From positions 48,920,001 to 48,984,000 of the forward strand of contig NC_058382.1 in the NCBI RefSeq assembly GCF_018350175.1: DNA of 64,000 nt, written 5' to 3'. This DNA comes from Felis catus (lineage: Eukaryota). Shown one piece after another: positions 1,722 to 60,486 of the stretch. The position numbers and the translations under genes are program-made. Below the pieces are notes generated by a model. The model saw only the letters and a program-made list of their open reading frames with translations, did no database searches and was not told the DNA's origin. Every line of letters starts with the position of its first letter. The stretch's first letter is position 1.

Positions 1722-1761
<40 letters not shown>

Positions 1762-5700: not shown

Positions 5701-5714
5701 ATAGTGACGGTTGA

Positions 5715-21163: not shown

Positions 21164-21197
<34 letters not shown>

Positions 21198-33035: not shown

Positions 33036-33125
33036 GAGATGAGTGTGGGCTACGCAAATGGGATCAGGGTGATGAGCATGACTCACACAGGAGAGCCGGG
33101 ATTCATGCTCTACATCCCCATAGAG
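33036..33125 (+). CDS. PDPR: PDPR coding exon 15
   Basis: EMSVGYANGIRVMSMTHTGEPGFMLYIPIE; 90 nt. Confidence 0.96.
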
Positions 33126-33299
33126 GTGAGCCCCGCGGAGGAAGGTGGCCGGCTTTCGCACCCCTGCCGGGCACTGGCAGAGTTAGAGAGCCAGATCTGA
33201 CTGGGCCTCGGGAACGGAGGCAGGCTGCATTAGGGGCACTTTAACATTTTGGACTAAGTTACTTACTGTTTTGAATAGGAAATACGTTTATGTGGTTTA

Positions 33300-35700: not shown

Positions 35701-36087
35701 TTACTTTTACGGGGTTAGGCTTTCTTATAGTTACTAACTGAAGCACAAATTTACTAGCCCATGAAATTCCATATGCTTGTCGAGACAACTGTAACAACAC
35801 TAAGATGAAGGGATTATTCGCAATTTGAGAAGAGTTGCTACAAATGTAGCTGATCTGCTGTCCCTGTACAGGTAGGGGCTGGTTCTGAAATGTCACCTGG
35901 GTGCCCTTGTCATGAATTCACTGAACTCGATCAAGAGTGGCTCCAGCAGGTTTGTTACTTGAGGCCTTGGATTCTACTTCTCATTTTCCTGGGCTGCTCT
36001 TGTTTTTATGATTTTCAGTGAGTCCACAAGGTGGTTTGTGCCCTGCCTGGGTTCTTTACAAGCTGGCTCCTGTCCTCAAGAAGGGTA

Positions 36088-36365
36088 TACAGCTGCCCCT
36101 GGCATAACACTCAGTCAAAGCTCCACATAGAACTTTTGACTCCTCAAAAACCTTAACTGCTAATAGCCTACCATCGACTGCAAGCCTTACTGTTAATAGA
36201 CGTTTTGTGTGCTACACGTGTTGTATATTCTTCTAATACAGTGAGCTAGAGAAAACAAAATGTTATTAAAATCATATGGAAAATACATTTACAGTCATGT
36301 ACTGTACTTACTGAAAACTCCACATCGAAGTGAGACACACATAGTTCAAACCCATGTTAACTGTA
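36088..36365 (+). mobile_element. Tigger2/MER8-like DNA transposon relic
   Basis: AACTTTTGACTCCTCAAAAACCTTAACTGCTAATAGCCTAC resembles the Tigger2 family; TA-CAG...CTG-TA ends. Confidence 0.7.
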
Positions 36366-36864
36366 CTTGTCTCTTTGAGGGGAAACAAAAACATCCCCCA
36401 AAACATGGGGACAGATGGCAGGTTCTTGTTTGGCTCACACTAAATCCCCAACAGCTAGAAAAGGAATATATGATGGGGACCTGCTTTTCTCATCTAATCC
36501 AAGACTAGTTACCTGCTTCAAATCTTTATTCCCTGGCCTTCCTCTTAACGATTCAATTGGAGACACTGAAGCAGTGAGTGCAACGGAGATACTGGCTTTT
36601 GATTATTCTCGTTTCCTGTCCATCCCCATGGGCCTCCTGCCCCCACCGTTGCTCATTCAGGTGTGTCACTTGCACGGGGGCCACACAGTGTATGGATTCA
36701 ATAGCACAGGTTCTGTTTTTCTACAACTCTTTTCAAGTTGTCCTGACCACCGTGGCCATTCAGTAGATGCCTCTTTGGCTGCAGGAGAGCAACACGCAGG
36801 GCAGCAGACCCAGCCAGGGTACAGAACTGCAACACCAGTGAAACCAGTTTCTTTTCCATCCTTC

Positions 36865-37460
36865 CAGTTTTATTGAGATATAACTGACATATATCACTGT
36901 ACAAGTTTAAGGTGCACAGAATGATGGATTGACATGCCCTGTGACATGACTGCCGTGGTAAGTTTCATTTTGCACCATTTATGTCTCATAGATTCGTGTG
37001 TCCTAGATCCTTGTGGGGCACAGGATGGCTCAGTGGGTTAAGCATCTGAGTCTTGATTTCGGCTCACCTTACCATCTCAATTTGTGAGTTCGAGCCCACA
37101 GCATGGAGCCTGCTTGGAATTCTGTCTGCCCCACCCAGGCTAGGTCTCTCAAAAATAAACATTGTTAAAAAGCTTTTCTCCTTGGGATGAAGACACTTAG
37201 GATTTACTCTTGTAACAACTTGTGTTACTTGTCACACAGCAGTGTCTGCTGCGGACATCAGGTTGGGTATTCCATACCTAGTTCTCGTTTGTCTGGTAAC
37301 TGAAAGTTTGTACCTTCTGCCTCCCTTCCTCCAGTCCCCACTTTCCTCTCCCCACCTCTGCCAACAACAACTCCAGCCTCTTTTTCTGCAGATTTGGGTC
37401 ATGTTGTTTGCGATTGTACACGTAAATGCGATCATGAGACGTTTCTCTAATTAATTTCTC
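36865..37460 (-). mobile_element. L1 3' end fragment with nested SINEC (37015-37170, plus)
   Basis: TTTTATTGAGATATAACTGACATAT...GTAACTGAAAGTTTGTACC L1 3' UTR motif. Confidence 0.78.
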
Positions 37461-38195
37461 TTGTCATTTTGTCTTTTTAGTTATTAAAGCTAATAATGTA
37501 GTCTGGTACTAGGCTTTAGACATCACAGAATACGTTTAAACATCACACAGTAGGAGTATCTGCCTTCAGTTGAGGAAACTTTATTTAGGGTGTCTGACAC
37601 TTACAGTTTCCAGAACCAAGAATAACATGAGAGGCTGGCCATTGTGGGACACGGGTAGGGTGCGCCGCCTTCCTGGCTCAGTCACTTGAGCGGGGTGGGG
37701 GGGGGGGGACGCGGGTCTCTGAGATGTGCCATCTGTGGAAAAAACAGACATTGCCCATGGGGTCCTGTGTGACACACATTTCCCAGCACGGGCAATGCAC
37801 GTGAGGATGGGGTGGGGAGTTGGGGCGAGAGCAGAGCCGCGGTGGCTGAGCGGACTGAGAGGCACTTGTGGGCCTGGCCGTTGATGGGGTGGTGAGAGTG
37901 TGTGTAGGATTCTCATTTGAGGACTGCTGTGTGCTTGGCTCCCTGTCCCAGGCTCCACAGAGAAGGGAAAGCTATGGATCTTGCTTCCATGGAGTGTAAG
38001 TCGGGTTAGGGTGACCCTGGCTCATTACTCCTGGGTAGTGATGCTTCAGTTGCTCGAGGATGAGACGACCTGAGAATTTCATACACCCTCCTCGCTTGTT
38101 GAGGTTCACGGTGTCCCCCATTGGGTGCTGCCAGACACACTCCGTGTTGAATTCGGAAGGTGTGCGGGCTGCTGACCTCTCGTTTCTCCCTCTAG

Positions 38196-38378
38196 TATGC
38201 CCTCCATGTGTACAACGAAGTGATGAGTGTTGGGCAGAAATACGGAATCCGGAATGCTGGCTATTATGCTCTTCGTAGTCTTCGAATCGAGAAGTTCTTT
38301 GCTTTCTGGGGTCAGGATTTAAACACCCTCACCACACCCCTGGAATGTGGACGAGAATCTCGGGTGAAACTGGACAAG
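38196..38378 (+). CDS. PDPR: PDPR coding exon 16
   Basis: YALHVYNEVMSVGQKYGIRNAGYYALRSLRIEKFFAFWGQDLNTLTTPLECGRESRVKLDK; 183 nt. Confidence 0.97.
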
Positions 38379-38937
38379 GTACGGTATCGGCACGTTCTGC
38401 CCTAGCAAGGAAGGGCTGAAGTGGAGGCCCGCGAAGGGCCTCAGGTGGACGAAGACAGTGAGGAGTCCTCAGGATGAAAAGTGTGTCCGGCCTGATAGGA
38501 AAACATGGTATGTGGAGAACACTGGTTCTGAGCACCTGGCTTGCTCTTTGAACCGGACCACCGTGAGGCTGGAGTTGCTCCACCAACTGCGGCAGCCGTG
38601 TGCCCCACTCGGCTCCCTTTTAGATTGGCACTTTCAGGGAAGTTTTTCCAAGAACGTGCCACAGACATTTGTAAAAATCAATCTTCCATTCAACAGACTT
38701 TTTTTCCCCCAGAGTAAATAGGAACATCATTTTTTATAAAGTCCTAGGTCAAGAGGATGTTAGTGACAAGTCTCTTTCCCACCTCTGAAGCCCAGCAAAC
38801 TGCACTACCGGCTGCAGCAGCTTGTCTCTGCTTCGAGAACTCTTGAGTATGCAAACACACAAGCGAACGCTTTCCCCTCTTGAACCTGGATGGCTGGGCA
38901 CCACACGCCTGCTGTATTATTGCACCTTTTTGTTTTG

Positions 38938-39527
38938 GATGTTTATTTTAGAGAGAGAGAGAGAGAAAGCATGAGTGGAGGAAGGGTAGAGAGAGAGGGA
39001 GACCCAGGATTTGAAGCAGGCTCCAGGCTCTGAGCTATCAGCACAGAGACCAACATGGCGCTCGAACTCACGAGCCAGGAGATCATGACCTGAGTTAAAG
39101 TCAGACTCTTAACCAACTGAGCCACCCAGGCGCCCCACACCTTGTTTTTTTAGGTTAAACCTAACAAAATACCTTAGCAGTACAAAATACCCCTATCAGT
39201 ACAGGAGATTTCTAGTTGTCTTTGTGAGCAATTACAGATCACTTTTTCTCTCAGGTATAAAAGTAATGAATACTAAATTTTGGAAAATAGGGAAAAATAT
39301 GAAGAAAATTAAGAATCATCTATTTTATAAGTTTTTTTTTTTTTTAATGCTTATTTTTAAGAGAAAGAGTGTGACCAGGGGAGGGACAGAGAGGGAGACA
39401 GAATCTGAAACAGGCTCCAGGCTCTGAGATGAGGGCAGCAAGCCTGACACAGGGCTCGAACTTAACAAGCCAGGAGATCATAACCTGGGTCGAAGCTGGA
39501 CACTTAACCGAGATGCCAGGTGCCCCC
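38938..39527 (-). mobile_element. Two SINECs (38938-39136, 39332-39527)
   Basis: Reverse-complement SINEC heads with T-rich tails. Confidence 0.92.
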
Positions 39528-39953
39528 CAAATCACCTATTTTATCTGTACATAATCAAGAGTTTTTTTTTTTACCCTGCTCATGTTTCTCGCACATTCAA
39601 ATACATACATGTGTGGGCTTTCTCTTGAGATTATCTAAAAACATGGTTTTTTGAAAACAATTATAGCAAGTATTTTTGAATTTTTCTTCCTATTTTTTTT
39701 CTGTGTGGTCTTGTGGTTGAAATCTATGTTTACAAAAGAGAAAAATGTACACCTGTGTTACAGAAATTTTCTGAGTAGGTCTTCTATATTGTGAATGCAG
39801 TTTTTTCACAAGGTGGAAAATCTACATTTTCCCCAAATCTGGGGAGTGGGGCCCTGCTCCCATGGCAGGGACATCAGGGGACCCTACCCACCGCCCCTTC
39901 TGCGCCCAGCATCAGCATGTCAGCCTGCTTTCAGCATTGCCGTTCTCTCCTAG

Positions 39954-40358
39954 GGGATGGATTTCATTGGCCGGGATGCCCTGCTGCAGCAGAAACAGAA
40001 CGGGGTGTACAAACGCCTAACTATGTTCATTCTGGACGATCACGACACCGATCTGGACCTCTGGCCCTGGTGGGGAGAACCCATTTACCGCAACGGGCAG
40101 TACGCAGGCAAGACCACCAGCAGCGCCTACAGCTACACCCTGGAGCGCCACGTTTGCCTGGGCTTCGTGCACAATTTTTCCGAAGACACTGGGGAAGAAC
40201 AGGTTGTGACGGCAGATTTCATCAACCGGGGAGAGTATGAGATTGACATCGCGGGACACCGGTTCCAGGCCAAGGCCAAGCTCTACCCTGTCACCTCCCT
40301 CTTTACCCACAAGCGCCGAAAGGATGATGTGGAGCTAAGTGACTTGCATGGAAAGTAA
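39954..40358 (+). CDS. PDPR: PDPR coding exon 17 (last)
   Basis: GMDFIGRDALLQQKQNGVYKRL...RRKDDVELSDLHGK-TAA; 405 nt. The 17 exon lengths sum to 2637 nt with no frameshift. Confidence 0.97.
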   Translation, partial: GMDFIGRDALLQQKQNGVYKRLTMFILDDHDTDLDLWPWWGEPIYRNGQYAGKTTSSAYSYTLERHVCLGFVHNFSEDTGEEQVVTADFINRGEYEIDIAGHRFQAKAKLYPVTSLFTHKRRKDDVELSDLHGK

Positions 40359-43300: not shown

Positions 43301-45010
43301 TTCATTTCCTTTCTGCACACCACCCTTAACCCACATCCCTCCCAAACTTGCCAGGAGCAGCTTTTCATCAGCATGAAAAAGGGAAAATTTGCACGAGTCA
43401 AGAATTGTCAGAGGGGATGACAGGGTAGGTGACAGAGTCTGGGAGCAAGCTCTGGGTCTCCTGGCTGTGCCTCTCCCCGCGACCCCCACCCTGGCCTCCA
43501 TGTTAAGGTGCTGAGTTGTAAGGCTCCTCCATCACCCGTACAGGACCTGGGTTCACACTCCCTCATCACTACAGATGCACTATTTTTCAAGAGAACTATT
43601 TTTGTATGTCTTTGCCTTCTCTTTGTCCATTAAACACCAGAGTTTAGTCCTTGTATAATATGATTCTTGACTTCTGAGCAGAGAATCTGCATCCCTTGGA
43701 GAATTCCACGTTTCTTCATGGGCTTTCTTCCTCATATTTAGATGTACCTATTTTTATCCTTTGCCAACCTTCTGCCTTCTTGGTTTTCTGTCTCTAAAGG
43801 ACAGAAATTACAAGGGGTGGGGAAGGTATTTTTAGTATCTGTTTCAAAAGATCTGTGCCAGGATTTCCTTTGCACACCCGGAACTGGAGCTTGGAGCACC
43901 TTTCTCCAAGCCCGGTTCTCGTGCCTTACACCAGAATGTCCCATGGTAGGTGTAGACAGGAAGGATGAAAAGAAACTTCGCTCAGTCTGAGGGTTTCCCC
44001 AGCCACCCCCCATAGCTTCCCTTCCCCATATCAAACAGGGATAGAAAGTTTCCACAGCTTGTTTCAATCAAGGGGTTTCTAGCAGCACAGTTAACACTTC
44101 ACTCTCCGGTCTACTCTTAGGATACAGGAAAATGCCATTGTAATTATTGTACAGTGCTGTAACTCCTCCTTTACATCTGTAAATATGCAGTTTGCTCAGG
44201 CCCTTAGTGTGCAGTGACAGGTGCTGCTGAGGACATGTGAGGCACTTTAGGGCATGGGATCTTTCTCAGGAGCCCTGGTGACTTTAGGTACCCAGGGTGA
44301 CTGAGCACTTCTGCCTCTATGAATGCGGTATTAACATCATGCCCTGTATTTCTTTCAAGCCAGATTCCAATTAAGATGTTCTCTTCATGTTATTAAGTTT
44401 GTAAATGAATAAAGAGACATTTTAATAACTCTGGTCATAGCAACTTGTGAAATGTTCTTCATCTCTAGCAACTTGATGTATTTGCCATCACAAGGGGTAA
44501 GCACTCCCCATAAAACCATTTATACCAAAGCATAAAAAAAAAAAAAAGAATGTGGAAACCAAGGTAAGACATAAGCATTATGTTACCCTTTGTGTAGGGC
44601 TGACAGGTGTAGAGAAAGTCCCCAATTATCTGAAGTTACGGTCTCAGTCACTGGATCTGACCGCCCATCCTGCCTTACGGTTGATTGCACAGTAAGGAAC
44701 CTGGCACTTGAAATATCCCCCATCCATGTGAAAGCCCACGCTGGCATGGAAAAATGGGCTCTCTATATATTCTTGCACACACAGTAGGAAGAGAAGAAAA
44801 TGGAGAGGAGCACCCAGTGATCTTTCCCTGTAATCTAAAAATGTAGTCACTGGTCTTTGTTTACTGACCTATTGTTGAGCAGCTACAATCTGTGAATTGA
44901 GATAGGCAAACATGTCTCTAATAATCGCATGAATCTGTCTTCCAAAACCACTTGCTAAATTTCCAGATCATCGAATGATCAACATTAAATACAAAAGTAC
45001 ATCCCACAGG
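40359..45010 (+). other. PDPR: Probable long PDPR 3' UTR (end uncertain)
   Basis: SINE-free stretch after the stop codon. First clear AATAAA seen at 44408-44413, plus ATTAAA at 44984-44989. Confidence 0.6.
44408..44413 (+). terminator. Candidate polyadenylation signal
   Basis: AATAAA about 4 kb after the PDPR stop. Also retained in both paralogous copies (4738-4743 minus, 57424-57429 plus). Confidence 0.55.
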
Positions 45011-45026
45011 CTCTGTGGTAATTCTG

Positions 45027-48000
45027 AAATAAGGGTTCCTGAAACCCTGTGCACAGTGACATTGCTAGAATATCCCACAATGATTCCTTGAAGGGGACAA
45101 CTCTCAAATGATGTGTATCTCCTCCTTACTATCAATACACCGGATTATACACACATTCCACACCATATTAGTAACGAGCAACTCTAGGAAGCAGAGCAGA
45201 GCCCAGCAAGCAGAATCTAAGCAAAAAGACTTACCTTCAAGCCCCTCCTCCAAACGACAGGCCAGCAGAGTTCACTCCCACTAGGACATAGTAGCCCTGC
45301 ACTGCAGGAGACTCGCCCATGATGCACCTCATGTCTGGGGTGCAGGTCTCGAGGCAGGTGACCAACTTCACGATCTCCAGAGTCTCCAGTTCTGGCATCC
45401 GACGCAGGAGGGAACTCAGCAGGGGCTCTGAGCCATAAAAACAAGGCCCGGCAAAGCACAAGGAACTGAACCGGTGGACCGGAAGTCAGCAGTTCTGGCG
45501 CTGGGCCCATTACACGGACCCTCTGCTGACTCAATCCCTGGTAGATACCCGATTCAAGTACCGGCTGCCATCAAGTTAAATCCAACCCAGAGGGACTCTT
45601 CCCGCCTGTCCTGCACGTATCCCGCATCTTCCCTAACAGAAGCCAGAGACGGTGCAGCGGCAGGCACCAAGCACATTTACCATCTTCACTCGCGGGTCCT
45701 CGCCTCTCAAAAGCAAGCCTGGCCGAGAGCGAGGACACCACGGGAGTCGGGCTCATCTACCGGGCAGGGACCAGGGCGAGGCGGCTGAGGCGCCCGCTCT
45801 CAGCACTGGGCCAGCGCAGGGCCGGCCGGGGAACCCTGCTCACGTGCCCAAGCACGTACAGCCTCTTCCTGCCTGCCTGTAGCTCCTCTCCTGGCATCTC
45901 CCCTTCTCCACTGCCACATCAACCCAATCCTGTTACAGGACGCTCATCTTAACCCACAATTGACAAACAAGGTCACACTTCACCAGAGTGCGAGTTATAT
46001 GAAAGGGAAAGCTAGAAAACCGTAGTCTGTCGTCAGAATCTCTGATGATTATGATCTCACCTTCCCCAGTGAAAACTGTGTCATTCGCCACCTAATTTCC
46101 AGTTGGCCGGCAAAGTGAGCCCCAGGCCGTGCGTACCCCGTGACCACATGGCAGAGCCACCTCAGCTGGCACACAGATCGCGCTACCGTCCTGGTCAGGA
46201 GGGGTCTTGACTTCCCTGTGATTTGAATCACGCAGGTGTTCTGAAGAGCAGCCCTGAGCTACACGAGCGACTAGGCCCAGCTACTCGCTTAGGACAATTC
46301 CCGCCGCCACCAAACGGTTTCACCAGCTACGACACAGGCTCAACCCTGGGCTTCCGGCTAGTCCATCACCTCGCGACAAGCTGACAGACCTGCTTCCTAC
46401 TTGTTTTCATATGGGACCGCCCCATAGCCTGGTCTCCCCGTCCTACTTGCTCCGGTCGTATTCGGCTCACGATTCCCCGGGTTCTTTTCCCTTGGTGACG
46501 CACACAAGGGGTAACATACGCTTAAGCTTTACAGTCACAAATATCCTTAAGCGGGACTGGTGAAATTCAGTGGCTCAGACTATGATTTCACTGTCAAGCA
46601 CCAAAACTTAAGCACTTCCTTCTCTTCCTCCTTCAGGAGCCAGATGTGGCCACCTAATATATACTTCAGAGGGTGAAATAGGAAATGGCACAGGAAAACC
46701 TTCACATCATAGGAATTCTGGCATCTGGATAGGATCCGAGATAATGACCGAATCCCCTCGACAGATAAGGAAACGGGAGACAGCTCGACACGCTCACACA
46801 CTGGCCCGAGGTAAGACCAGGACGAGTGCAGAGCTCGGACTGAAACTCAAGCCTCAACTAAAGTCCCCAGGCAGGCTTGGTGTCGGACCGCATGTGGTAC
46901 CGAGTGAAAGAGTCCGGGCCACAGGCAGACCAGTAAATGGCAGAGTACCTGCTTACCTGTTTGGATCCCTGTTTCTTGCTCTAACTGCTGGTAGAGTTTG
47001 TTGGAATAGTCTGCCATCTTCTGCTCGATGGTCAAGTGCCTGGCGGTGCTCAGGATGCCGGCACAGAACCTCGTAGAGCCAGCGGCCAGCCTGCGGGATG
47101 GATCCAAAATGCTCTTAGGTAGACTCGCATATCTGTGAATGCAACTAGTTCAAAGACCCTCATTACTGGCACCGACCGTAATATCAAAAGACGGAAACCT
47201 AAATATCCCGACAGGAGAGGGATCTCAAATGTTGGCGTTCACCTACACGACGGGACGCCGCGCAGCCATAAAAAAGGCACGAGAATGCTCTTCTGCAACA
47301 ATATGGGAATCCGAATGAAAACAGCATGGGAGGAGCACTACTTAATATGCCACTAACTTGTACAAAAAAAGAGAAAAAAATAGCAAGTGAAGACCCACGT
47401 ACACACGTACACACTGACCAACACGTTTGCTCATATACACGGGGGGTGTCTGCAACGACACACTAGGAACTTAATTTGCCTCCAGCGAGGGAAACTTCAG
47501 CCAGAAGTCAGGGATGAGAAGCAGACTTTCCCTGCACACTCTTTTACAGTTTTTAATTCTGAATCGTATAAATGCATTGCCTATTCGGAGAAAATTACAA
47601 CGGACTTGTTAAACGTCATTCAATTTCTGGTAGGCAATAGAACAAAAAAGGACTTTAAGGGAAAGTGAGACAACTTGTACCAAGTACGAACCTTAGTCAG
47701 TAATAAGGTATCCATATTGATTCATCATATTTAACGGTAACCCCAACCTGAGATGTCAGTCCCAGGTGCACACAGGCGTGAGGCACACGGGAACTCGGTA
47801 CAACCTTTGCATTTGTTCTGTAAATCTAGCACGGCTCTAAAATAAGTTAATTCAGTGGGGGGAAAGAAAGGAACAGAAAGAAGACAGATGCAGCCAATTT
47901 CATTTCCGCCCATAGAGGGAGCTCCAGAGCCACGGGGTCTATGTTGCCATTTGACGGCCCCTACCCGGAGAACAAGATGGTAAGATGTGCCTGGACCCTG

Positions 48001-51000
48001 AAATAAAACGCAGCCTCTTCGGATACTCGGCTCCGCGGCATCTGCCACCTCTCTCAGAGCCCAAAAACACGGGTATCGCACATCGCGAAACCATGGACAG
48101 GAGATTTCGCCTTTCCGTGACTGTTCTCATGCTACCTAGCGACAGGTTAGCCACTGCCGGGACAGGTTACCGGGAGCAGAGGGGGTGAGGGAAGCCCACG
48201 CAGTTGGTGCAACATGGCCCCAAGCCGGGTCCCGTCTGGTCCTTACCTGCCCTGCTCCAAAAGGACAATATCCTTCCAGCCCATCTTGGAGAGGTGATAG
48301 GCCACGGATGTGCCCATGATTCCACCGCCACAGATGACCACGTGTGCCTGGGCAGGCAGGGCGACAGAATGCGCCTCGGCAGCTGGCGCACCGCTTCTCC
48401 CCGACGACCAGTTCTGCCATCCTCGGCCGGTCCTTTGTCTCCGGGCCACCGACAGCAACCGGGAAAACATCACGTCTGCCAGTCAGCAGCTCGGAGATGT
48501 GCTCCCACTCGGCCAAAGAGGAGATTCTCCCCAATTCAAACTAGACAGAGAAAGCAAACAGATTTCATTCCACTGTACTCAGTGCGCCGGGTTAGTGACA
48601 AAAGAAAAGGAGGCAACAGAGAATGATAATCATCGTGCCTCATCCAGACAGAGGCACAAGCACATGCAAAGGCCCTGAGGGGAGGCACACCTGAAGGAGT
48701 CCGAGCACAGAAGGGAGGCCAGCGTGCCCACAGCTCGACGGCAAGGCACAGTCGGCCAGAGACGAGGCCGGAGAGGCAGGCAGAAAGCAGTGACACAAGC
48801 GCTTGGATGCCTCACGAGGAGCTGGGATTTTACTCCAAGTGCAAAGGAAAATACTAAAGCAGGGAATGAAATGATCTGATACGCTTTTCCTAAGATCGGC
48901 CTGGCTCCACAGTGGGGAGTGGACTGGAGGAAAGGCAGGGCTAGGAAGCTACCGCAGGAGTCCAAGAGGGAGGGCACGGTGGCTCACACAAGGATGGTGG
49001 CGGTGGAGTCAGAGCCATGACTGGATTGTCGTGGATGGTGAAATGACAGTACTTAACTTGCCAACAAACCGGATGTTAAGATGGGGAGCGGGAGAAAGAC
49101 GGACGATGGCAAAGTTTCCAGGTTAAGCGACGACGGGTGCCACTTCCTAAGGTGTGAAGGACTAGGGATGCGGAGGGAGGCGGGAGGGAGAGGGAGGCAG
49201 GAAGGAGAGGGAGAGGGAGGCGGTGAGGGCGCGTGCGCGCATACCGAGGTGTCAAGGGCGAGACACCTAGCAGGCATCCACGTGGAAGTGCCAAGCAGCT
49301 ACATAACCAGGCCTGAAACCTGGGGAAGACGTGGGGTATCCGGAGACCCGGCAGTCTGAGGAACAACTCTGAGGCTCCCCAGCAGGCACAGCTTGGCAAG
49401 AGAAAGAAAGTACTGGACGGGGGACTGCGCGCCGGGGCAGACTCACAGAGCGTCCAAACGGCTGAGCGGCGGAAAAGGAACCGGGCAGAGGTGTCCCAGA
49501 AGCCGAGAGAGGAGATGGTTCGCTACAGAGGGTGGCCAGGGATGGAGCAAGACGGCCAGGTGCCTGCTGGGACTTGACGACACAGAGGTCCTTGGTGTCC
49601 TCAAAGAGGACATTCCCAGGGGAGTGCCAAGGACGAAGTATGGACTACAGCAAGCTCAAGAGCAAGGAGATGAGGGAGTGTGCACAGCTTCCTCACGTGC
49701 TGCCCGGAAGGGAGCAGAAACCCCAGACAGGAGGAGAGAATGGGGGTGGAGCAAGGCTATTTGTCTATAAAGGTGGGAGCCACGGAGACTGTTTCAGGGC
49801 TGGCGAGAAGGGCCAGGAAGAGGGAAAGAGGTGGGGGAGGAAGGAGAGGCGGTGACAAAGAATGAGGTCCTGGAAAGGAAGGGAGAGGGAGAAGAGAAGG
49901 AGAAGAGAAGGAGAAGAGAAGGAGAAGAGAAGGAGAAGAGAAGGAGAAGAGAAGGAGAAGAGAAGAGAGAGAAAACAAACCCAAAGCCGCAGTGAGGGAC
50001 GGCGTGCCCCGCGTCTGCACAGGCCACAGACTGGAGACACCAGGTCCCACGGCCCCTTCCTGAAAGCAGGGGAGGACCGGTCATGGCAGGCTTATGACGA
50101 ACCACGGGAGTCACAGGCTGCGACCAAGCGCATGTCCCTCTGAGATGACTAACACCATGAGGTAGACTAGGGAGCGGACAGGTTCAGGCCACCAGGGAGA
50201 ATTACTCTAAGGGCATACTGTTCAATTTTTAAGAAACTGCAGACAGCCCTGTGGGCGAAGGCACGGTCTCCGAGTGTGGGGAGACGGCGACACTTCAGAG
50301 GAGAGCCCTGGCAGCCCGTGCGCCCACCAGCACGCCGCTACCAGCCCGGGACCCACGGAGGGCCCCCGACGGCCCAGGTCGTCCAAGGCCAAGGTGTGGG
50401 TGCCCATCCATCAGACAGGATCTCAGAACTGAGACCGAGCAGGCCTCCACTGCGTCCCAAGGAAATCCCATCCAACCAGGGCTGATTACTTTGGCCACCT
50501 TGTGGTGACCTCCAGGCCTCACCTCCTTGGTCCCCGCCAAACCGTCTCAAGACAGAAGCTTCTCCACAGCCAGACTTCCCACAATCTCATCTCCATATGA
50601 CTGATTTCTCTCTCTCTTTCTTTCTTTCTCTCTCTCTCTCTCTGTCTGCTGTCCTCCGCTCCAAACCTCTCCACCGTGTCCTCCAGAACATCCTTTCCAA
50701 ACTGGAACACCCAGCCCTTCACCTAGCTTCTCTCCACCTCTGCTTCAACAGAGACACAGCTCTACTGAGGGAAACGCCACTGCCACGTGGCCAGCCCGTC
50801 CCACTGACCTTGCCATCGGGGGGGGGGGGAGGCGGGCACCCTTCTCCCTTCAGAACCATTACCACTTGGTCATGCTTGAAAAGACCCTGTTCCCTCATGG
50901 CTCACACTAGCAGGCACCCCGTAGCGAGCCCCGGGCCACTGCGTGTTCAGCCACAGGCAGATGTCTGTCTACATTCAGGTTCTGAACCCACAACACTGCT

Positions 51001-54000
51001 CCTCTCCCAACCTGGGACCCCACCTCCTTCCTTCCTTCCAAACACAAAACCTGTCTCCTCAACCCCTGAAACTCCACCTGCATCTACGACCACCTCTTCC
51101 TTCAACCTCGTAGGGTCAAAAGTTGATCCCTCCCCACGTGCCCTGGATCCCTCTCTCTCCTTCCTTCCCTTGACTCGGCTCCATCAACTGTCCCCTTCCA
51201 CGTACCTTCAGTGTCCCCTCCAATCCTCAGCATTTTAATATGCTCAAGTCCCTCCCAACTGACTTAAGAAATACAAGAAAGGCTCCGTACCAGTCTTCCA
51301 ATGGTGATTTTTAATTTTACAAATTCTGAATTATAAAAATTGTGGTCTTTGTAAACCACACAAACGTAGAAGGAAATTAAGATCTCCCATCATGCAAAAT
51401 ACTCAATTCCAGGGCTGATGAAATTTCCCCAGACTTATTTATCTTGCAGCACGTGCTCCCCTGACACCCACCTGTGTGCCACCACCTGTCTTAAAGTCCT
51501 TTTTGTTACACCTCGGTGATTGCACAGTCTGCCGGCGGGCTACACCAAAATTTACTATGACGTCACAACCTGTCTTTTTCACTTGACAAGAAGGGCTTCC
51601 TATGGTATCTGTCACTTTCCCCCCTTTCCACCGTCCCGAACCCAAGCGGTTAAGCTCCCGTCCCGCAGGCCGGAATACTGCTCTCACCAAGAATGCCACT
51701 GTTGCCACCTTCCAGGGACACCGGGCCCATCTCACTCACCCTCTCCACGGCACTGAACACCGCCGATCGCCCCCGCTACTCACGCACTCTGTCCCTGTTT
51801 TATTTTGACACCGACTACCCCGGTCACACCTACACCGCCTTCCCTCCCCCGCCCATCCTTCTGTGTTGCTGTCCCTCAGGGTGTCTGGGACCAGCTTCTC
51901 CTCTCAGTCTGCCACCCTCCAGGGTCATTTCACGCGTACCAAGACTGACGCCTAAGCCCACAACAGCCCCGAGCTTTACATCTGCACCTCGAGCTGAACA
52001 ATGGCCATGTCCACTTGGGTTCCCGTGGGTCACGCCGAGCACATCCAGAAGGGAAACCCACCTGCCTCAATCTCCAAATCTGCTCCACTTCTGTGTCCCG
52101 CAGTGACACCATACACAAGAATCCCGGGTGTCACCTCCTCTCACCTCCCTCTCTCTCACCTCCTCTATGCGGCCAACCGTCATGGACTAACAATTCCACA
52201 GGCGACATTTCCCTCAGACCATCGACCTCTCCCCCTCCTCACTGCCATTACCTGAGTACAGACCGCCCTCCCCGATCAGATGAAGGCAGAAGCTTCCCGA
52301 CAGGGCTTCCGCACACCATTCTCCCCACCCCCCCTCAATCCTTCCGAGGAGGGGCGTGGAGGGAGGCTTCTCAAAGGAAACCCTTGTTCACACCCCTCTT
52401 CAAAACTCTGCAATGGCTTTCTGACGCCCTGAGGAAAAAAGCATTGTCCTGAACAGGAAGTGTGCGAGATCCTTCATCATCAGGCTCATTCCTGACCTCT
52501 GGTCTCTTTCTCTCCTCTCCAGCCAGACGGACATACTGATAATTCCTCCAACAGGACAGGCATTGAGTCTCTCTGAAACCCCCAGGATCGGGGCACACTG
52601 TTCCTTCGAACCACACGGCATAGTTCCTGCCCCCCTGCCCCCCAAACATGGATAATCCCCTCAGCTCTCACCCTGTTTCACAGCTTATCAGACCCCCTCT
52701 CCCCCAATACCGCCTCAGGTGACTCTTCCGTGTTCTCCCACAGCACCCTGCACTTCTCCAGCACAGAGCCTCCCACACTGTCACAGCCTGTTTGCCAATC
52801 AGGGAAACGGCACAGCGACCCCGCTGGAAATGCAGGCTTTGGGGGCAGACAGGTACGGGTCTGAAAATCTCCCCCACCTCTCATCAGCTCTATGGCTTTG
52901 AGCAAGTCATTCCATCTCGGTGCTCCAGGCTCCTCATCCACAAGGTGAGCTACGAACACCTGCCTCGCCGGGTTGCCACAAAGACTACAGGAATACAGAC
53001 AATACAGGAAAAGCATGGTAACTGGCACCCGAGAAGCACTCAGTAAGCGCTAGTTTTTAGTCTCCTCTTACAATGGAGCTCTCTGGGAGCTGAGACCAGT
53101 TACCACTTCAACGTGATTCTGCCGGCATTCAGGGTAGGCACCTAGGAAATATAATCAACGGAGGAATGAGAATGTACAATAAACGAGATGGGAAAAAATT
53201 CAGTGAGGACTCTGAGATCTTGAGGCTAGGCTCCAAGATTTCAGGGGATATCTAAATCACATAGAGTAATTTTTTAAAATTGTTTTCAGGGGTTTTTTTT
53301 GTTTTTCAGAGAGAGAAAGGGAGCCAGCAGGAGCCGGGGAGGGGCCACAGAGGGAGAGAGAGTATCTTAAGCAGGCTCCACGCTGAGCATGAAGCCCGAT
53401 CTGGGGCTCATCCCATGACTCTGGGATCCTGACTTGAGCCAAATCCAAGAGTGGGACACTCAACCAACTGAGCCACCCAGGCCGGTAGAGAAGAATCTGA
53501 AGATGTCAGAGACAAAGAAATAAAAGGTGGAGCCGGGTTTAAAATAAGTTATATTTAAAAACAAAAAACAAAAAACTAAGATGGCCCTATAATATTCTCT
53601 CCCTCTAGGAAGAATCGCTAAGGCAACCTCAATATCGGGACTGGTTATGCTCACACCTGCTTACGACAAGAAGAGCAAGGGACAGCTCCAAGTCCCTCTG
53701 GGTTGTTCCCCTGTATGGTCCCAGCGTGTGTACAAATGGGCCGCTGGTCACAAGGAAGCCTAGTGAGTGGAGCTCGACCGACACACTTCCCACTCTTGCT
53801 TCAGCAGAAGGGCCACCTGGGACATTTCCTTCAAACAGACAAAAACCCCAACGCTATCCCAGGCTCTTTCTCTGGAGAGGCTGGTCCCGGGGGTGTATCT
53901 GTCAAAACGTGCCACCAGGTGATCAGGCAAGTTTAAGAAATTAATACATATCCCTAGCGCTGGAAAAGTGTGCCCCGTGGCCCGGCACCGGCACCCCTCC

Positions 54001-54780
54001 CCTCCTCCCCCCCCCCCCCCCTCCCCCGGCCGCATGCCCGGACGTCACGCTTACAGAGATTCCCGAATCTAATGTGAATGTCCTTCACAGGGGTCCCGAG
54101 TGACCAAACATCACGAAGACAGTTCACCACCCTGGCCTACACTTTTCCCGGTAACTCGGCTTGCCGCACTCTGCGGCAGGCGTACAAGTTAGCGAAGCAG
54201 AGGCGGACCGCACGTCTCCAGGCGGGAAAACGATTGCACCTGCAGAGGGAGAAGGGCGGGCGAGACCAGCCAAACCCGCGCCAGGCGCTGTGCAAGCCCG
54301 AGGCGGGGGGCCCGAAGCGAGGGCACCCCGGCCGCTCTGGACATCGGGCTGAGGAGCGCAGGCCCGGGGGCAGCCGTGCACGGGGCCCCAAGGCCCGGAC
54401 CCCGGACCCCTTCGGCCGGACGCCGCACAGCCGCAGACCGACTGAGAGAGACGAGGCAGACCCACTCCCGCCCCGGGCCGCCGGAGTCCCCAGCGACCCG
54501 GCAGGAGCGACAGGAAACGAGGGGCGGCCGCGACCACCCCCGAGGAAGACCAAAGCGAAAAGGGGGGCGCTGAGACCCGCGCGGAGGGGAGGCCAGAGCG
54601 GCCCCGCCGCCGTCTCCTTACCTCACGAGCCGCCGCGGGCTCCGCCGTCAGCAGCACCCCGGCGGCAGCGGGACAGCAGCCACAACAGTTGCCGGGGGTC
54701 CCGCCGCCAGAAACGGGGCACTGGGAATGGGAAGGGGGCGGGGCGGAGGGAGTAAAAAGTTCCGGGGAAGCGGGAGACCG
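45027..54780 (-). pseudogene. Partial inverted PDPR duplicate: exon 1, coding exons 1-2 (48470-48247, 47090-46957) and a diverged coding exon 8 (45427-45235) with premature TGA
   Basis: Coding exons 1-2 translate identically to the parent. The exon 8 copy has 10 substitutions in 193 nt, including GGA>TGA at 45239-45237. All splice dinucleotides are intact. Exons 3-7 and 9-17 are absent. Confidence 0.92.
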
Positions 54781-55265
54781 CGACCTTCCGCGCTTTACGG
54801 CCCCCGGCAAGGGTACGCCCGCGCGTGCCGGCACACGCGCACGCGCGCGCCGTGACGTCCCCGCGGCGGCCCCGCCCCTGCCACGTGGGGCTTGTTTGGG
54901 TGCCGCGAGGCCCCGCCCCGGGAGCTCGGCCCCCGCCCCAGTGGTCCAGGCTGCTTTCTGATGTGTGCAAGTGGAGCGGGGACGCTGCGGTGGGTCGCCG
55001 GCCTTGCCTTGCCGGGGTGTCGGGAGCGCGGGGCTTCGCTCTGCCCTCCAGGCGCCCTGCCGCTTCTGTCCCCGAGCGGGTCCGCGGCTCAAAGCCACTC
55101 TAGTCCCTGGCGCAAAAGGGCGGCGTGGACCGACAGTCCCTTGTCTCTGGAAGGCGCTCGGCTCTTCCTTGGGCCAGGCTCTAGCAGAGCGTCTGAAATC
55201 CGGTCTGCGGGCCTGGCCCGACCTCGGAGGCGGGTTTAGCGACCCTGAGCTCTGGGCGGGATCTC
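53975..55265 (-). promoter_or_regulatory. Duplicate PDPR CpG-island promoter, pointing back toward the PDPR 3' end
   Basis: Mirror of 6850-8140 with GC boxes, E-box, CRE-like, NRF1-like and ETS-like motifs and the exon 1 donor (~54621) retained. Confidence 0.88.
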
Positions 55266-56444
55266 ACGCTGCACCTTCCGGGCTTGCCTGGGCCCGAGGG
55301 AAGCAGAGTCATTCACTCCGTCTTCTGAGAAGCCTCCCGTCCAGTCCTCCCTTCCTATCGCTTGGCCCTGTCTTCTTTCCCTCGTGGAACTCATCACTAT
55401 CTAAAGTATGTGTTCGCTGACTGCCTTTGCCACCAGTGGCAGGCCCCGGACCCTGTCGACAGAACCTCAATCTTAGGCACGGCAGCACTTGCAGCAGCGC
55501 TTGGCGCATGGTCCAGCCAGTATTTCTTTGAATGGGGAGCGTTCTGAGGGCACGGCCGCCACTGCACGGTGGGCCACACTCTCCACCTCCCGGTCTTGGG
55601 ATTGAAGCCCGTCTTGCCACACGAGCCAGTCTCGTTTCCTTATGGCCTCTGATGATGGGATTCCGCAGTGCACAAGAACCGGAGGGCTGCTGCCATTTTA
55701 GGGGGTGGCAGGAAAGCTCAGGGACCCCGGTGGCACCAGGCCGGCCCACAACCTGCACAACTGTCTACCCACTGACTCGCCAGTTGACTCACACGCTACA
55801 TTGCACCGGGTTCTGGCTGCCTGAGGATGGAAACTCCGCCTCTTGCTGGTCTGACGCATAAAAGTTGAAGACATTCTGCGCTTCTGTGCAGAGAAATTCT
55901 TCAGTATTTTAGCTATAATGGCTTAGAGCTTGGTGTCACCTGACTACCCAAAAGGAAGAGGAAATAGACCAACCCATCTGAGGTTGTATTCTTGAGGACG
56001 TCCCAGATGTGGCAGTTTGGGGAGAAAAACTTCACAAGTTTTCCTGATGAGTAGTTTCACCTATGCCATTTTCAGGCTTGTGAATTGGGGAGAAACCTAG
56101 TTGTCTGTACGAAACGGTGGGTGAAATGAAGTGATGGTGTGGTAAATTCCATTCCGTTTACGTGCAGTTAAGTAGTGAACACACTGTACGCATTTCTCCC
56201 TGCTTACGTCAACCATCACTATTTTTTGATGTTTATTTATTTTGAGAGAGGGAGAGAGAACAAGCAGGGGAGAGGGGCAGAGAGAGAAGGAGAGAGAGAG
56301 AGGATCCCAAGCAGACTCTGCACCACCAGTGCAGAGCCGGACGCAGGACTGGGACCCACCAACGCTGAGATCATGACCTGAGCCCAAACCAAGAGTCAGA
56401 GGCTCAACCGACTGAGCCACCCAGGTGCCCCTCAACCGTCACTA

Positions 56445-57790
56445 TTTACATCTCCACGATAAAAGGCTGAGTCCCACGGCTCCTTTATTGTCGACGTTGG
56501 TTCTTGTACTTTCTAGGCTCTCATGTCCACCAAATGCCCTATTCTTCAGGAGGACTGACTGTTTTCTCTTCCGGGCTTCTCCTACTCCACGAAACGTCAG
56601 AGTGACTTCTTGTACGATACTTCACAGAGCACACCGTCCCGTGCACAATTACACGTCTTGACGGGACTTTTCACTCGTGGTATTTGGATTCACCGTTGCA
56701 AACATTCTGCCTTCTTGGTTTTCTGTCTCGCAAGGACTGAAATTACCAGGGGTGGGGAGGATAGTTTCAGCATCTGTTTCAAAAGATCCATGCCAGGATT
56801 TCCTTTGCACACCAGGAACTGGAGCTCGGAGCACCTCTCTGCTCCAAGCCCGGTTCTCGGTTCTCGGTTCTCATGCCTTACGCCAGAATGTCCCACGGTA
56901 GGTGTAGACAGGAAGGACAAAGAGAAAGTCAATCACTCGGTCTGAGGGTTCCCCTCCACCCCCCACAGCCTCTCTTCCCCAGATCAAAGGCCTGGCCTGC
57001 TGGGTAGAAAGTTTCTGCGGCTTGTTTCAATCAAGGGGTTTCTAGCAGCACAGTTAACGCTTCACTCTCCGGTGTGCTCTTGGGATACAGGAAAATGCCA
57101 TTGTAATTATCGTACAGCGCTGTAACTCCTTATTTACATTTTGTATTACAAAATGTACATTTTGTATTACAAAATGTACATTTTGTAAATGTGCAGTTTG
57201 CTCAGCCCCTTTCTGTGTGTGTGTGTAGTGACAGCAGGTGGTGCTGAGGACACGTGAGGCATTTTAGGGCACGGGCTCTTTCACAGGAGCTCCGGGGACT
57301 TGAGGCGCCCAGAGTGACCAGCACGTCTGCCTCCGCGGGCGCGGTATTAACATCCTACCCTGTACTTCCATCAAGCCGGAGTTTAATTAACGTGTTCTTT
57401 TCATGCGACTGGGTCTGCAAATGAATAAACAGACACGTTAATTACTCTGGCTGAGTCCACTGTGAAACGTGCTTCATGTTTGGCGACAGGGTGTTAAGTA
57501 TTTGCCATAACAGAGGATAAACACGATACACAAAACCTTATCCACCTGTGTTACCAGAGCATAAAACAGGATTTGGAAACCAAGGCACAGCACACAGGCA
57601 TTCCATCACCCTCCGCGCAGTGGCGGCATGGCTAGAGACAGATAGCCTCCCTTACTCTTCTGAAGGTTTGAGGACTCACATCTAAGTCTCTAACACGCGA
57701 CAGACTGAACCAGCCAAGAAAGTGCTAAGCATGCGGTAGGCACCAGCGGTGGTGCCTCGGAATCGTCTCGGGACACGTAAAGCAACACCC
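56445..57790 (+). repeat. Right-arm copy of the 3' UTR paralog (direct repeat of ~43490-44740)
   Basis: Same blocks; ORFs 43742..43990 and 56677..56901 show related translations. Confidence 0.9.

Positions 57791-60434: not shown

Positions 60435-60486
<52 letters not shown>

Follow-up and report, generated by a model that had tools for sequence, protein, structure and literature searches.

Palindromes of primate X chromosomes are the closest described counterparts of the locus considered here. According to the excerpted account of Jackson et al. 2021 (PMC8327919), their arms exceed 8 kb and are more than 99% identical around a unique, gene-capable spacer; arm divergence is lower within than between species, which is read as ongoing gene conversion, and structural changes and deletions concentrate at the spacer and inner arm. 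On the human Y chromosome, arm-to-arm gene conversion keeps the inverted repeats of palindromes P1-P8 alike (PMC8600007, PMC3723533, in excerpt). The inverted repeats at FLNA/EMD flank essential genes in many mammals, and an age of more than 100 My has been suggested for them (Caceres et al. 2007, as relayed in the excerpt of PMC8327919). Outside the sex chromosomes, one abstract describes how duplicates within segmental duplications of autosomes exchange sequence by interlocus gene conversion (PMC3790853), and another reports that mouse chromosome 12 carries a palindromic segmental duplication (PMC13688818). These two systems concern other loci and other species, neither abstract mentions PDPR or a boundary remnant, and a paper on a carnivore PDPR palindrome was absent from the best-ranked full-text literature matches.

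The window, i.e., the whole 64,000-bp stretch of Felis catus DNA that was analysed, contains a palindrome built around PDPR. It differs from the primate X palindromes in apparently lying on an autosome, as judged from what is presumably chromosome-16 synteny of PDPR, and in holding a housekeeping mitochondrial regulator where those hold a testis gene family. It resembles them in its long, near-identical arms around a gene-holding spacer and in the inner-arm position of its 7.9-kb deletion; its arm identity of ~99.4% stands against a divergence below 0.2% in the X palindromes, it is probably older than the 25 My shown for them, going back to the cat-dog split or beyond, and the excerpted account (PMC8327919) mentions no counterpart among them to its stranded, dated remnant at the inner boundary.

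Homogenised inverted repeats are common to the PDPR palindrome and human Y P1-P8, and a steady-state argument is applicable to both. For the human Y, Rozen et al. in 2003 reportedly described a steady state in which the conversion rate is approximately the mutation rate divided by the arm divergence, and the Y palindrome conversion rate is said to be 2.2e-4. The same formula gives 0.86e-8 / 0.0057 = 1.5e-6 per base per generation for the PDPR arms, which is about two orders below the figure quoted for the Y; the PDPR arms do not lie on a non-recombining chromosome. With FLNA/EMD, as portrayed in the excerpt of PMC8327919, the PDPR locus shares the question of whether one old, homogenised origin or repeated independent duplications account for the repeats. 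It is unlike FLNA/EMD in that one arm contains the gene's own working 5' end and in that spliced transcripts of the truncated copy provide a shared-architecture argument for a single origin.

Arms, spacer and gene content of the palindrome

Self-comparison of the window resolves two inverted arms. The left arm (1..16709, plus strand) carries the PDPR promoter region together with coding exons 1 (13680-13904) and 2 (15058-15195), both on the plus strand. The right arm (45441..64000, minus strand), of which 45441-62142 pairs with 1-16709, carries exon 1' (48246-48470) and exon 2' (46955-47092), both on the minus strand and identical in DNA to their left counterparts. A blastn comparison of the window with itself aligns 1-16709 and 62142-45441 in 16,768 columns at 98.718% identity and counts 90 mismatches and 20 gap openings between them; MAFFT gives 102 mismatches and 16 gap events for the same pair, about 17 of the mismatches being a misaligned CCT microsatellite at 12160-12220. 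Arm substitutions amount to ~0.6% (98.7% identity counting gaps), and the 16.7 kb of arm inside the window contains no indel larger than 26 bp in the MAFFT alignment, compared with ~12 SINEs in the 28.7-kb spacer.

The arms extend past the window to ~20.1 kb each plus an 826-bp outer block. On the left, ~3.4 kb more lies upstream of the window start and is followed by the outer block; on the right, the arm continues to 65522, with 8.5 kb of extra unique DNA and then the outer block to 74903 (window-based coordinates). The full arm pair spans 20,153 aligned columns at 98.7% identity with gaps counted, contains 131 substitutions in ~19,960 bp and encloses a spacer of 28.7 kb, an arrangement of many-kilobase inverted arms that are ~99% identical around unique DNA. 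With the outermost kilobase excluded, 108 mismatches remain in 18,960 bp (core divergence 0.57%); the outermost kilobase itself diverges by 2.3%, and the outer block behind the 8.5-kb indel by 1.3% (Fisher p = 0.029 versus the arm). The dispersion index across all 1-kb arm bins is 3.55 (p = 2e-7), and divergence is near-even once the outermost kilobase is left out (chi-square ~27 on 18 df, p ~0.08, summed by hand). Strong-base sites among the arm differences are symmetric (54 left, 59 right), a count that speaks neither for nor against GC-biased fixation. An ORF scan of 1-13600 (at least 70 aa), inspected by eye for a further gene in the arms, yielded nothing gene-like, and a search for diverged homology past the outer arm edge returned SINE matches only. 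Leaving aside the SINE-like repeats embedded in it, the 8.5-kb extra piece of the right arm has no second copy in the genome; a transposon insertion was considered for this piece and rejected, as it has neither terminal repeats nor an ORF of reverse-transcriptase size.

The complete functional PDPR coding region occupies 13680..40358 (plus strand), every exon being found by tblastn with carnivore PDPR proteins, and exons 3 to the last lie within the spacer. Two downstream exons on the minus strand, N1 (42992-43075) and N2 (42388-42564), are joined by truncated-copy transcripts in annotated relatives. Protein searches with these exons (P0024 residues 207-263; P0121 residues 104-186) retrieved 2 cat sequences each, the word index being coarse for exons so short and fast-evolving, and tblastn of gene models against the window was used instead.

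The exon 8 remnant and the deletion junction

Next to the right arm lies a stranded remnant of 449 bp (44993..45441, minus strand), which consists of the last 14 nt of intron 7, exon 8' (45235-45427, minus strand) and the equivalent of 245 bp of intron 8. Its functional partner (24585..25036, plus strand) comprises the 3' end of intron 7, PDPR coding exon 8 (24599-24791, plus strand, 193 nt) and the first 245 bp of intron 8, and 25036 is the original duplication boundary. In exon 8', a TGA at 45237-45239 replaces GGA. The blastn alignment of 24585-25036 with 45441-44993 spans 454 columns at 91.4% identity and contains 32 mismatches and 5 gaps. The differences are distributed unevenly: 0 of 14 bases in the intron 7 stretch at the junction, 10 of 193 in the exon (5 transitions and 5 transversions, K2P 0.054), and 26 of 241 (10.8%, K2P 0.118) together with 4 gap events in the intron 8 fragment (24792-25036). 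The step at the arm boundary is sharp, with 7 mismatches per 1000 bp in the last kilobase of the arm against 32 in the 449 bp of the remnant (Fisher p = 3.5e-11); divergence leaps from ~0.6% to ~10% within 1 bp where the deletion made an island. The exon 8 region has only 2 copies in the 2.43-Gb assembly, the remaining query matches being SINE. The longest perfect match between remnant and functional copy is 70 bp and the next 36 bp. The 70-bp run, which lies at the start of the remnant, was evaluated as a possible signal, and since its p is an estimated ~0.1-0.2 once the number of intervals is allowed for, nothing is drawn from it.

The segment present in the left copy only (16710..24584, plus strand) measures 7,875 bp and holds PDPR coding exons 3-7 (20589-20933, 21631-21756, 22526-22645 and on to 23523) as well as five SINE copies. 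A deletion from the right copy, as opposed to an insertion into the left, follows from this content, because the segment contains PDPR exons 3-7 along with five separate SINEs. At the junction in the right copy (45441..45444), the arm and remnant alignments overlap without filler bases. With the breakpoint marked by a slash, the arm reads ...GGGCCTTGT/GG, the pre-exon sequence ...GGGTTTGT/TTTTTATGG and the right copy ...GGGCCTTG/TTTTTATGG; microhomology of 1 bp (T) is certain, and TTGT (4 bp) applies only if the T run later lost one T. The absence of filler and the few bases common to both breakpoints are the marks of a microhomology-associated deletion. Exons 2' and 8' now lie ~1.5 kb apart, with GT and AG sites present. 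A processed (retro-copied) pseudogene was rejected as a description of the right copy, in which the intron between exons 1' and 2' is retained and ~17 kb of upstream non-coding DNA is copied too.

These measurements largely coincide with a sequence-only reading made earlier from the window. That reading had put the arm right of 45441 at about 99% identity to its partner, as blastn and MAFFT both find; its counts of 10 in 193 exonic and roughly 10% of intronic differences were exact, and its 7.9-kb deletion is the 7,875-bp segment whose exons 3-7 occur in the left copy only, with a clean junction. The far end of the remnant is 44993 and not 45027, where the reading had begun it.

Truncated copies across carnivores

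The cross-species comparison covered 63 residues of exon 8 and 120 of exons 1-2, taken from automatic gene models. Eleven cat truncated-copy sequences were available, namely the window itself, one identical to it and nine distinct from it that come from other cats; the eight full-length sequences among these nine join exons 1 and 2 to a remnant-type exon 8. Two derived changes from M to V (V19 and V51) occur in all 11 cat truncated-copy sequences versus none of the 4 cat functional sequences, and position 63 is an end or a stop in 10 of the 11, the eleventh being spliced out earlier. To judge from these gene models, the right arm and the remnant would together predate the living cat radiation. 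A cat-specific CAC (His) at 13806-13808 is present in both arms, and the Felis catus entry likewise has His; the full-length truncated-copy models of other cats and the 'Felidae n=3' PDPR have Gln at this site. This Q>H change is the only site with a lineage-specific state in both arms. Together with the low mismatch level and the lack of large indels, it suggests that the present likeness of the arms is younger than the cat radiation.

Family-specific derived residues of exon 8 are common to truncated and functional copies in cats, dogs, bears, seals and mustelids: Y46/V49 in cats, D14/L36/L41/I56 in dogs, and D12/L19, S41 and R43 in arctoids. Both paralogs carry them in all of the sequences compared (15/15 cat, 4/4 dog-family and 12/12 arctoid). 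The splice architecture is shared as well. Truncated copies of bear, jackal, seal and otter splice to homologues of 43075-42992 and 42564-42388 on the minus strand (E 7.7e-5 to 7e-3 versus the window), and cat and caniform truncated copies use the same downstream minus-strand exons. In two otter models (P0143 and P0048), exons 3-7 are retained before exon 8' and N1, which is consistent with an ancestral copy without the deletion. Splicing of exon 2 to exon 8' also occurs in dog, bear, seal and Mustela models, and the deletion may therefore be older than assumed; given these caniform models, the island may occasionally have been reset although out of register. Carnivore 'PDPR-like' proteins of 150-220 residues are, on this pattern, the predicted products of the truncated inverted copy and should not be taken as functional paralogues on annotation alone.

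Among cats, residue 59 shows a G/A swap, which, with ORF P0135, hints at a later exchange involving the remnant. In ORF P0135 the upstream residues are of the junction type and the exon 8 that comes after them is of the functional type; the ORF is treated as a lead only, because a conversion-reset remnant and a short-read chimera formed through the same 70-bp identical stretch at the start of the remnant explain it equally. Model tails from Kogia, Ovis and Pteropus map in antisense to the 3' part of PDPR or to DNA downstream of it (E 9e-5 to 9e-4 versus the window); a pre-carnivore origin was considered on this basis and set aside, as the matches are too weak for such a claim.

History, age and competing explanations

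Under the proposed history, an inverted duplication would have copied the 5' region of PDPR tail-to-tail, a few kilobases downstream of the gene. The duplicated unit would have run from upstream DNA through coding exons 1-8 to a point 245 bp into intron 8, with a palindrome holding the remaining PDPR in its spacer as the outcome. In the cat lineage, a 7,875-bp deletion in the right copy would have taken exons 3'-7' and left a 449-bp island, with exon 8' and a short piece of intron 8, directly abutting the shortened arm. Conversion tracts of the arm could not enter the island because it is short and 7.9 kb out of register, and with perfect matches of only 70 bp and then 36 bp after divergence, further exchange should be suppressed. 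Displacement alone need not stop exchange, unless the indel is young, because the outer 826-bp block is displaced by 8.5 kb and is still 98.7% identical. The divergence of the island's intron (K2P 0.118) would mark the time of its last homogenisation, likeliest the deletion, ~26 My ago. The explanation as a whole, i.e., an old PDPR palindrome with homogenised arms, an island cut off by a deletion and a remnant that dates its last homogenisation, has an estimated probability of about two in three. It is built on direct observations of the structure and its identity step, of the exons within the deleted segment, and of shared derived states and splice architecture; the conversion mechanism, the sequence of events and their dates are reconstructed from these.

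The duplication is older than the cat radiation and very probably older than the cat-dog split. Exon 8' would still have been homogenised after the suborder split, because family residues occur in both paralogs and the same downstream exons are used in both suborders. For the intron 8 fragment, K2P 0.118 / (2 x 2.26e-9 per year) gives ~26 My, based on the domestic cat pedigree mutation rate (10.1101/2021.04.06.438608, in excerpt). A second rough clock in exon 8' counts 3 shared stem changes against a mean of ~1.7 lineage-specific changes since the crown, and the two rough clocks agree on timing. What the remnant dates is its last homogenisation, most likely the deletion, which probably fell tens of millions of years after the duplication, and for the palindrome it provides a minimum age only. 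The sequence-only reading accordingly survives in part. Its single old inverted duplication is upheld by arm and remnant lying in the same order and on the same strand, as parts of one inverted copy of PDPR exons 1-8, and its homogenised arms and deletion stand with it; relatives with the remnant and no right arm, which would have spoken for two events, were not encountered, since nine truncated copies from other cats include eight that join exons 1, 2 and 8'. On this genome alone, its repeated homogenisation of the arm, as against one recent round, and its free ageing of the remnant are possible readings only. Its proposal that the remnant dates the palindrome is unsupported in view of the family-specific residues in both copies of exon 8 and the downstream exons common to both suborders. 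The wider caution for the dating of duplications is that a 'fossil' remnant times only the last homogenisation.

That proposal would hold if the remnant had never been homogenised after a single duplication, with its 5-11% divergence dating the palindrome and the caniform truncated copies being separate events. Taken alone, the cat data fit: V19, V51 and the stop are common to cats, Y46/V49 could predate the duplication on the cat stem, and the ~26 My become ~54 My at half the pedigree rate, nearing the base of Carnivora. Caniform truncated copies nevertheless match the cat copy in exon composition and run into homologues of N1 and N2, and with separate events at least four families would each have needed an identical inverted duplication that broke off after exon 8 and landed at an identical site; if there was instead a single old origin, about ten family-specific substitutions in both paralogs must each be parallel. 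Such an account is quite unlikely. Rather unlikely, too, is a one-off homogenisation, by one long conversion tract or by break-induced replication, that ran across an already old and diverged palindrome ~1-3 My ago, without ongoing conversion. Taken by itself, this genome fits such a recent event spanning the whole arm no worse than it fits repeated short tracts, considering the rather even core divergence of 0.57% and the lack of private SINEs or large indels in the window's portion of the arms. Such an event would not yield the 2.3% of the outermost kilobase and the 1.3% of the outer block; the dispersion across 1-kb bins speaks against it too, and the family pattern of exon 8 demands separate homogenisations on several lineages.

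The identity step itself could also arise if an exon 8/intron 8 fragment had strayed there long ago and a recent, unrelated 20-kb inverted duplication had by chance stopped next to it. This is very improbable: the fragment matches the same gene copy in orientation and order, abuts the arm without filler, and is joined to exons 1' and 2' in the gene models of other cats, from which it follows that the arm predates the split of those species, much too early to be compatible with a divergence of 0.6%. Long-read assembly is known to go wrong at near-identical inverted repeats, and a false inverted duplication or a chimeric join could mimic the whole structure. In that case the junction and the paralog-specific words should be missing from independent data. 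Both are present: ORF P0133 (74 aa), from a different public assembly, is an exact translation through the junction and the remnant, and 20 of the 24 listed runs (12 studies, one organism), with 8 of these 20 possibly being the source sample, carry at least 96% (0.96-0.98) of 317 sampled 31-mers of 44400-47400. Homologous truncated genes are, moreover, annotated in many carnivore assemblies, and an artefact is extremely improbable.

Returning to the preferred reading of an old, homogenised palindrome with a severed island, the PDPR locus offers a natural experiment on the limits of gene conversion between duplicates. If the palindrome is common to all carnivores, deep palindrome conservation extends from primate sex chromosomes to an apparently autosomal housekeeping locus. 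A broader version, put forward tentatively and at somewhat less than even odds, envisages one PDPR palindrome for all Carnivora, maybe from early Laurasiatheria, with a stepwise-shrinking conversion domain, datable strata and a flippable spacer; the whale, sheep and bat models may be faint hints of the earlier origin. If true, the palindrome would be at least 55 My old and among the oldest known in mammals, on an apparent autosome. Since both arms have identical promoter regions and exons 1-2, the spacer could flip by arm-arm recombination harmlessly to PDPR, and this is a possible selective reason for keeping both arms intact.

Divergence at the locus is graded (core 0.57%, outermost kilobase 2.3%, outer block 1.3%, remnant 7-11%, and 23% in a third, much older copy, X3), consistent with conversion plus loss at the edges. 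With a shrinking domain, these levels may represent escape strata, each of them datable: the core at 0.6%, the outer edge at 1.3-2.3%, the exon 8 island at 11% and X3 at 23-28%. X3 (43496..44618, plus strand) is a copy of the arm segment 4524-5626 / 56452-57641, with 23% mismatches and a K2P of 0.28. Its orientation is direct relative to the right arm, 375 bp separate it from the remnant, and its family comprises 3 copies only in the whole genome.

The PDPR palindrome and its stranded exon

The gene at this carnivore locus is PDPR (pyruvate dehydrogenase phosphatase regulatory subunit), as identified by a protein search with the translated exon 24601-24789, in which 143 of 159 candidate proteins matched at E <= 0.001; nearly all are labelled PDPR with Pfam PF01266, and a lion entry is the best full match (98%). 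The window occupies positions 48,920,001-48,984,000 of a 62-Mb contig. In tblastn alignments of carnivore PDPR proteins, the complete coding region spans 13680-40355 of the plus strand, with coding exon 1 at 13680-13904, exon 2 at 15058-15195, exons 3-7 within 20589-23523 and exon 8 at 24599-24791, the last of which had been numbered correctly from sequence alone. Identity between the palindrome arms that hold the 5' region of the gene (1-16709 and 62142-45441) is 98.7% in an alignment of 16,768 columns, with 90 mismatches and 20 gap openings; once the flanks are included, the paired arms span -3382..16709 and 65522..45441 (20,153 aligned columns). Excluding the outermost kilobase, they differ by 108 substitutions in 18,960 bp (0.57%), and the DNA of exons 1 and 2 is identical. 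The largest indel within the window's 16.7 kb of arm is at most 26 bp, in contrast to the 28.7-kb spacer with its roughly one dozen SINEs; the embedded SINEs presumably resemble the carnivore tRNA-derived family. Differences between the arms are mainly in microsatellite length, including a CCT run (25 bp) and AT/AC runs (10 bp, twice), together with a short 21-bp insertion that duplicates a local palindromic motif and another of 26 bp; the sites include 1670-1735/60430-60475, 4979/57187, 5859/56286 and 12160-12220/49940-49965.

At 45441 this identity falls abruptly, exactly as the sequence-only reading had described, to 91.4%. The remnant directly to the left (44993-45441), consisting of the copied exon 8 (exon 8') and a scrap of intron 8, differs from 24585-25036 by 32 mismatches and 5 gaps, compared with 7 mismatches in the last kilobase of the arm (32 in 449 bp; Fisher p = 3.5e-11). 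Its intron 7 tail shows no difference in 14 bases, while the two proportions previously proposed are both recovered: 10 of 193 exonic bases, and about 10% of intron 8 (26 of 241 bases, K2P 0.118, with four gap events). Across the 2.43-Gb genome, no copy of the exon-8 region exists besides these two. Seven of the ten exonic differences change the protein and three are silent; polarized against other carnivores, six of the seven lie on the remnant side, and a TGA at 45237-45239 replaces the GGA of the functional exon. The remnant exon appears to be decaying neutrally, which would explain why exon divergence is half that of the intron. Three residue changes (N>T, P>L, F>C) are clustered within 16 bp (24668-24683/45343-45358) and, among the cat sequences compared, occur only in the remnant of this genome.

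The left-copy stretch between arm end and exon 8 (16710-24584; 7,875 bp) encompasses coding exons 3-7 of PDPR, along with five distinct SINE copies. It is thus ancestral gene sequence that was lost from the right copy, which substantiates the suggested 7.9-kb deletion; an insertion into the left copy is ruled out by the same contents. The junction is clean: the arm side reads ...GGGCCTTGT|GG, the pre-exon side ...GGGTTTGT|TTTTTATGG and the right copy ...GGGCCTTG|TTTTTATGG, with 1 bp of certain microhomology, or 4 bp (TTGT) only given the later loss of one T from a run. As a result of the deletion, the 5' portion of intron 2 runs directly into the final 14 nt of intron 7, with the AG acceptor of exon 8' intact, and the splice from exon 2' (the right-arm copy of exon 2) to exon 8' is in frame in annotated relatives. 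The truncated copy (48470-45235, minus strand) retains an open 182-codon frame through exons 1', 2' and 8' up to the TGA, with intact GT/AG sites, and is collinear with 182-aa 'PDPR-like' models from other cats; in relatives, its transcripts run on into 43075-42388 (minus strand), where two exons converge on the PDPR 3' end. Many short proteins annotated as 'PDPR-like' in carnivores derive from this truncated copy.

Divergence strata and proposed conversion between the arms

Divergence is stratified along the locus. Compared with 0.57% in the arm core, the outermost arm kilobase (-3382..-2383, in flanking piece L005, versus 65522..64520) carries 23 scattered substitutions (2.3%), and an 826-bp outer block (-4207..-3382 versus 74903..74078) has 11 mismatches (98.7% identity; 1.3% divergence, p = 0.029 versus the arm); in the remnant, exon and intron divergence reach 5% and 11%, respectively. 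This edge gradient is present at the outer boundary and absent at the inner one. The outer block is displaced by 8.5 kb of unique right-arm DNA missing from the left arm (65523-74077, flanking pieces L006/L007), in which no terminal repeats or long ORF were found and which contains old SINEs; this second displaced block looks far younger than the exon-8 remnant. Outside its edge, the flanks share no homology but SINE matches. The most diverged layer is X3 (43496-44618), a third copy of the arm segment 4524-5626/56452-57641 in direct orientation to the right arm, located 375 bp from the remnant, with 23% mismatches (K2P 0.28) and a better conserved core of ~700 bp. With only three copies in the genome, the segment does not represent a transposon family, and X3 points to a duplication layer older than the remnant at this locus. 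The last exon of one seal gene model maps to X3 (44523-44491, E 0.005).

Assembly error has been considered as the origin of palindrome and junction. It is argued against by P0133, a 74-residue ORF from another public assembly that is an exact translation across the junction and remnant, by the recovery of 96-98% of 317 sampled 31-mers of 44400-47400 in 20 runs spanning 12 studies, out of 24 listed (eight of these 20 run rows may be the source sample), and by the annotated homologous truncated genes in many carnivore assemblies. Divergence climbs toward the outer edge, a pattern that fits conversion reaching the edges less often and speaks against arm identity being due solely to one duplication or one whole-arm event.

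It is proposed that non-allelic gene conversion operates between the inverted arms, either within a chromatid or between sister chromatids, and would be confined to contiguous homology, with large heterologies stopping the tracts. The 449-bp island would offer little room for exchange to initiate. Mammalian recombination needs roughly 130-230 bp of uninterrupted homology; in the remnant, the two longest stretches of perfect identity measure 70 and 36 bp, versus 949 bp in the arms, so the island may now lie below this need and its isolation would be self-reinforcing. At steady state, the conversion rate approximates the mutation rate divided by divergence, which implies about 1.5e-6 conversions per base per generation in the arms; the figure for human Y palindromes is approximately a hundredfold higher.

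The closest known systems are the primate X palindromes, with Y palindromes and the FLNA/EMD inverted repeats also close. Primate X palindromes are described as having arms > 8 kb and genes in both arms and spacers, and a single versus multiple origin of the FLNA/EMD repeats is debated (PMC8327919). Judged by its sequence, the PDPR locus shares the structural features of such palindromes and appears to work like these systems. None of the top literature matches listed describes a carnivore PDPR palindrome. The locus provides a tidy natural experiment and a useful caution on dating.

Truncated copies shared across cats

The cat truncated-copy set, drawn from the protein database and 90% clusters, comprises 11 sequences: that of the window, the identical P0133 and nine others, including Lynx canadensis, Lynx rufus and Prionailurus iriomotensis, with five models lacking a full species name counted as cat-type on the basis of N-termini identical to named ones. 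V19 and V51 are present in all 11, versus M at both positions in 4/4 functional sequences; position 63 is the end, or the site of a stop, in ten of the 11, and the remaining one is spliced out shortly ahead of that position. In the eight full-length models, exons 1 and 2 are joined straight to the remnant-type exon 8; in lion and tiger models, exons 1' and 2' are spliced to the downstream minus-strand exons N1 and N2. The right arm and remnant therefore predate the divergence of living cats, ~11 My ago. Both arms carry CAC (His) at 13806-13808, where full-length truncated-copy models of other cats and a functional entry labelled 'Felidae n=3' have Gln; this His and the Ala at exon-8 residue 59 match Felis catus entry P0132, unlike most other cat entries, which marks the genome as that of a cat closest to the domestic one. 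The idea of one old duplication with young arms is thereby supported, as the truncated copy is shared across cats yet the arms have hardly diverged, and the pattern agrees with the predicted grouping of arms within species and remnants across species, the arm side resting on one site and the divergence argument.

Age of the remnant and age of the palindrome

Truncated copies also exist in caniforms (bear P0138, golden jackal P0162, seal P0155, otter P0143), where exon 8' splices to homologues of the minus-strand segments 43075-42992 and 42564-42388 (E 7.7e-5 to 7e-3 versus the window), the same two exons N1 and N2 as in cats. That an inverted, exon-8-truncated copy arose independently in both suborders is very unlikely, given that both read into the same downstream DNA. 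Polarized against primate and other mammalian PDPR, each family's derived exon-8 residues are common to truncated copy and functional gene: Y46 and V49 in cats (15/15 sequences), D14, L36, L41 and I56 in the dog family (4/4), D12 and L19 in arctoids (12/12), S41 in seals and mustelids (9/9) and R43 in mustelids (4/4). Without exchange, about ten parallel changes would be needed; homogenization of exons 8' and 8 therefore continued after the suborders split. The shared downstream exons and family residues speak against the earlier proposal that the remnant dates the palindrome. Remnant-specific states differ by family (I29 in bears; M3C4 in 3/4 seals), and isolation thus followed later, separately in each lineage. 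In otter, models P0143 and P0048 include exons 3-7, then exon 8' with a private change, then N1, suggesting that an undeleted copy is still present in at least one carnivore. A pan-carnivore age of the palindrome, if true, would make the locus more interesting still.

On the simplest reading, ancestral arms would have extended through exon 8 and been homogenized as one whole until a cat-stem deletion stranded exon 8', whose divergence would then give the age of the deletion event. A domestic cat pedigree rate of 0.86e-8 per generation, at 3.8 years per generation, is given in 10.1101/2021.04.06.438608; with this rate, K2P 0.118 corresponds to about 26 My, and with half the rate to about 54 My. 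A second, cruder clock, comparing 3 shared stem changes with the lineage-specific residue changes that exon 8' has accumulated since the crown (mean ~1.7), agrees with the pedigree-based estimate. A direct splice from exon 2 to exon 8' is also seen in the dog, bear, seal and Mustela models, so the deletion may be older and the island occasionally reset by ectopic conversion. At residue 59 (24776/45250), the functional copy has Ala here and in the 'Felidae n=3' entry and Gly in lion; in the remnant, Gly is found here and in lynxes but Ala in three other cat sequences, a swap suggesting exchange or recurrent mutation. P0135, an ENA ORF of 76 aa on a 1,452-bp contig, combines upstream residues of the deletion-junction type (one change) with an exon 8 identical to the cat functional exon and lacking the stop; it may represent a remnant that conversion has reset in some cat genome, or else a chimera of short reads formed through the 70-bp stretch identical in both copies, the product of which would look the same. 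Displacement alone is no proof of isolation, since the outer block is displaced yet remains 98.7% identical.

In the non-carnivore models P0039 (Kogia), P0040 (Ovis) and P0034 (Pteropus), PDPR also ends at exon 8, and their tails map antisense, downstream of or within the PDPR 3' part here (E 9e-5 to 9e-4), a hint that the inverted, exon-8-truncated copy may predate carnivores.
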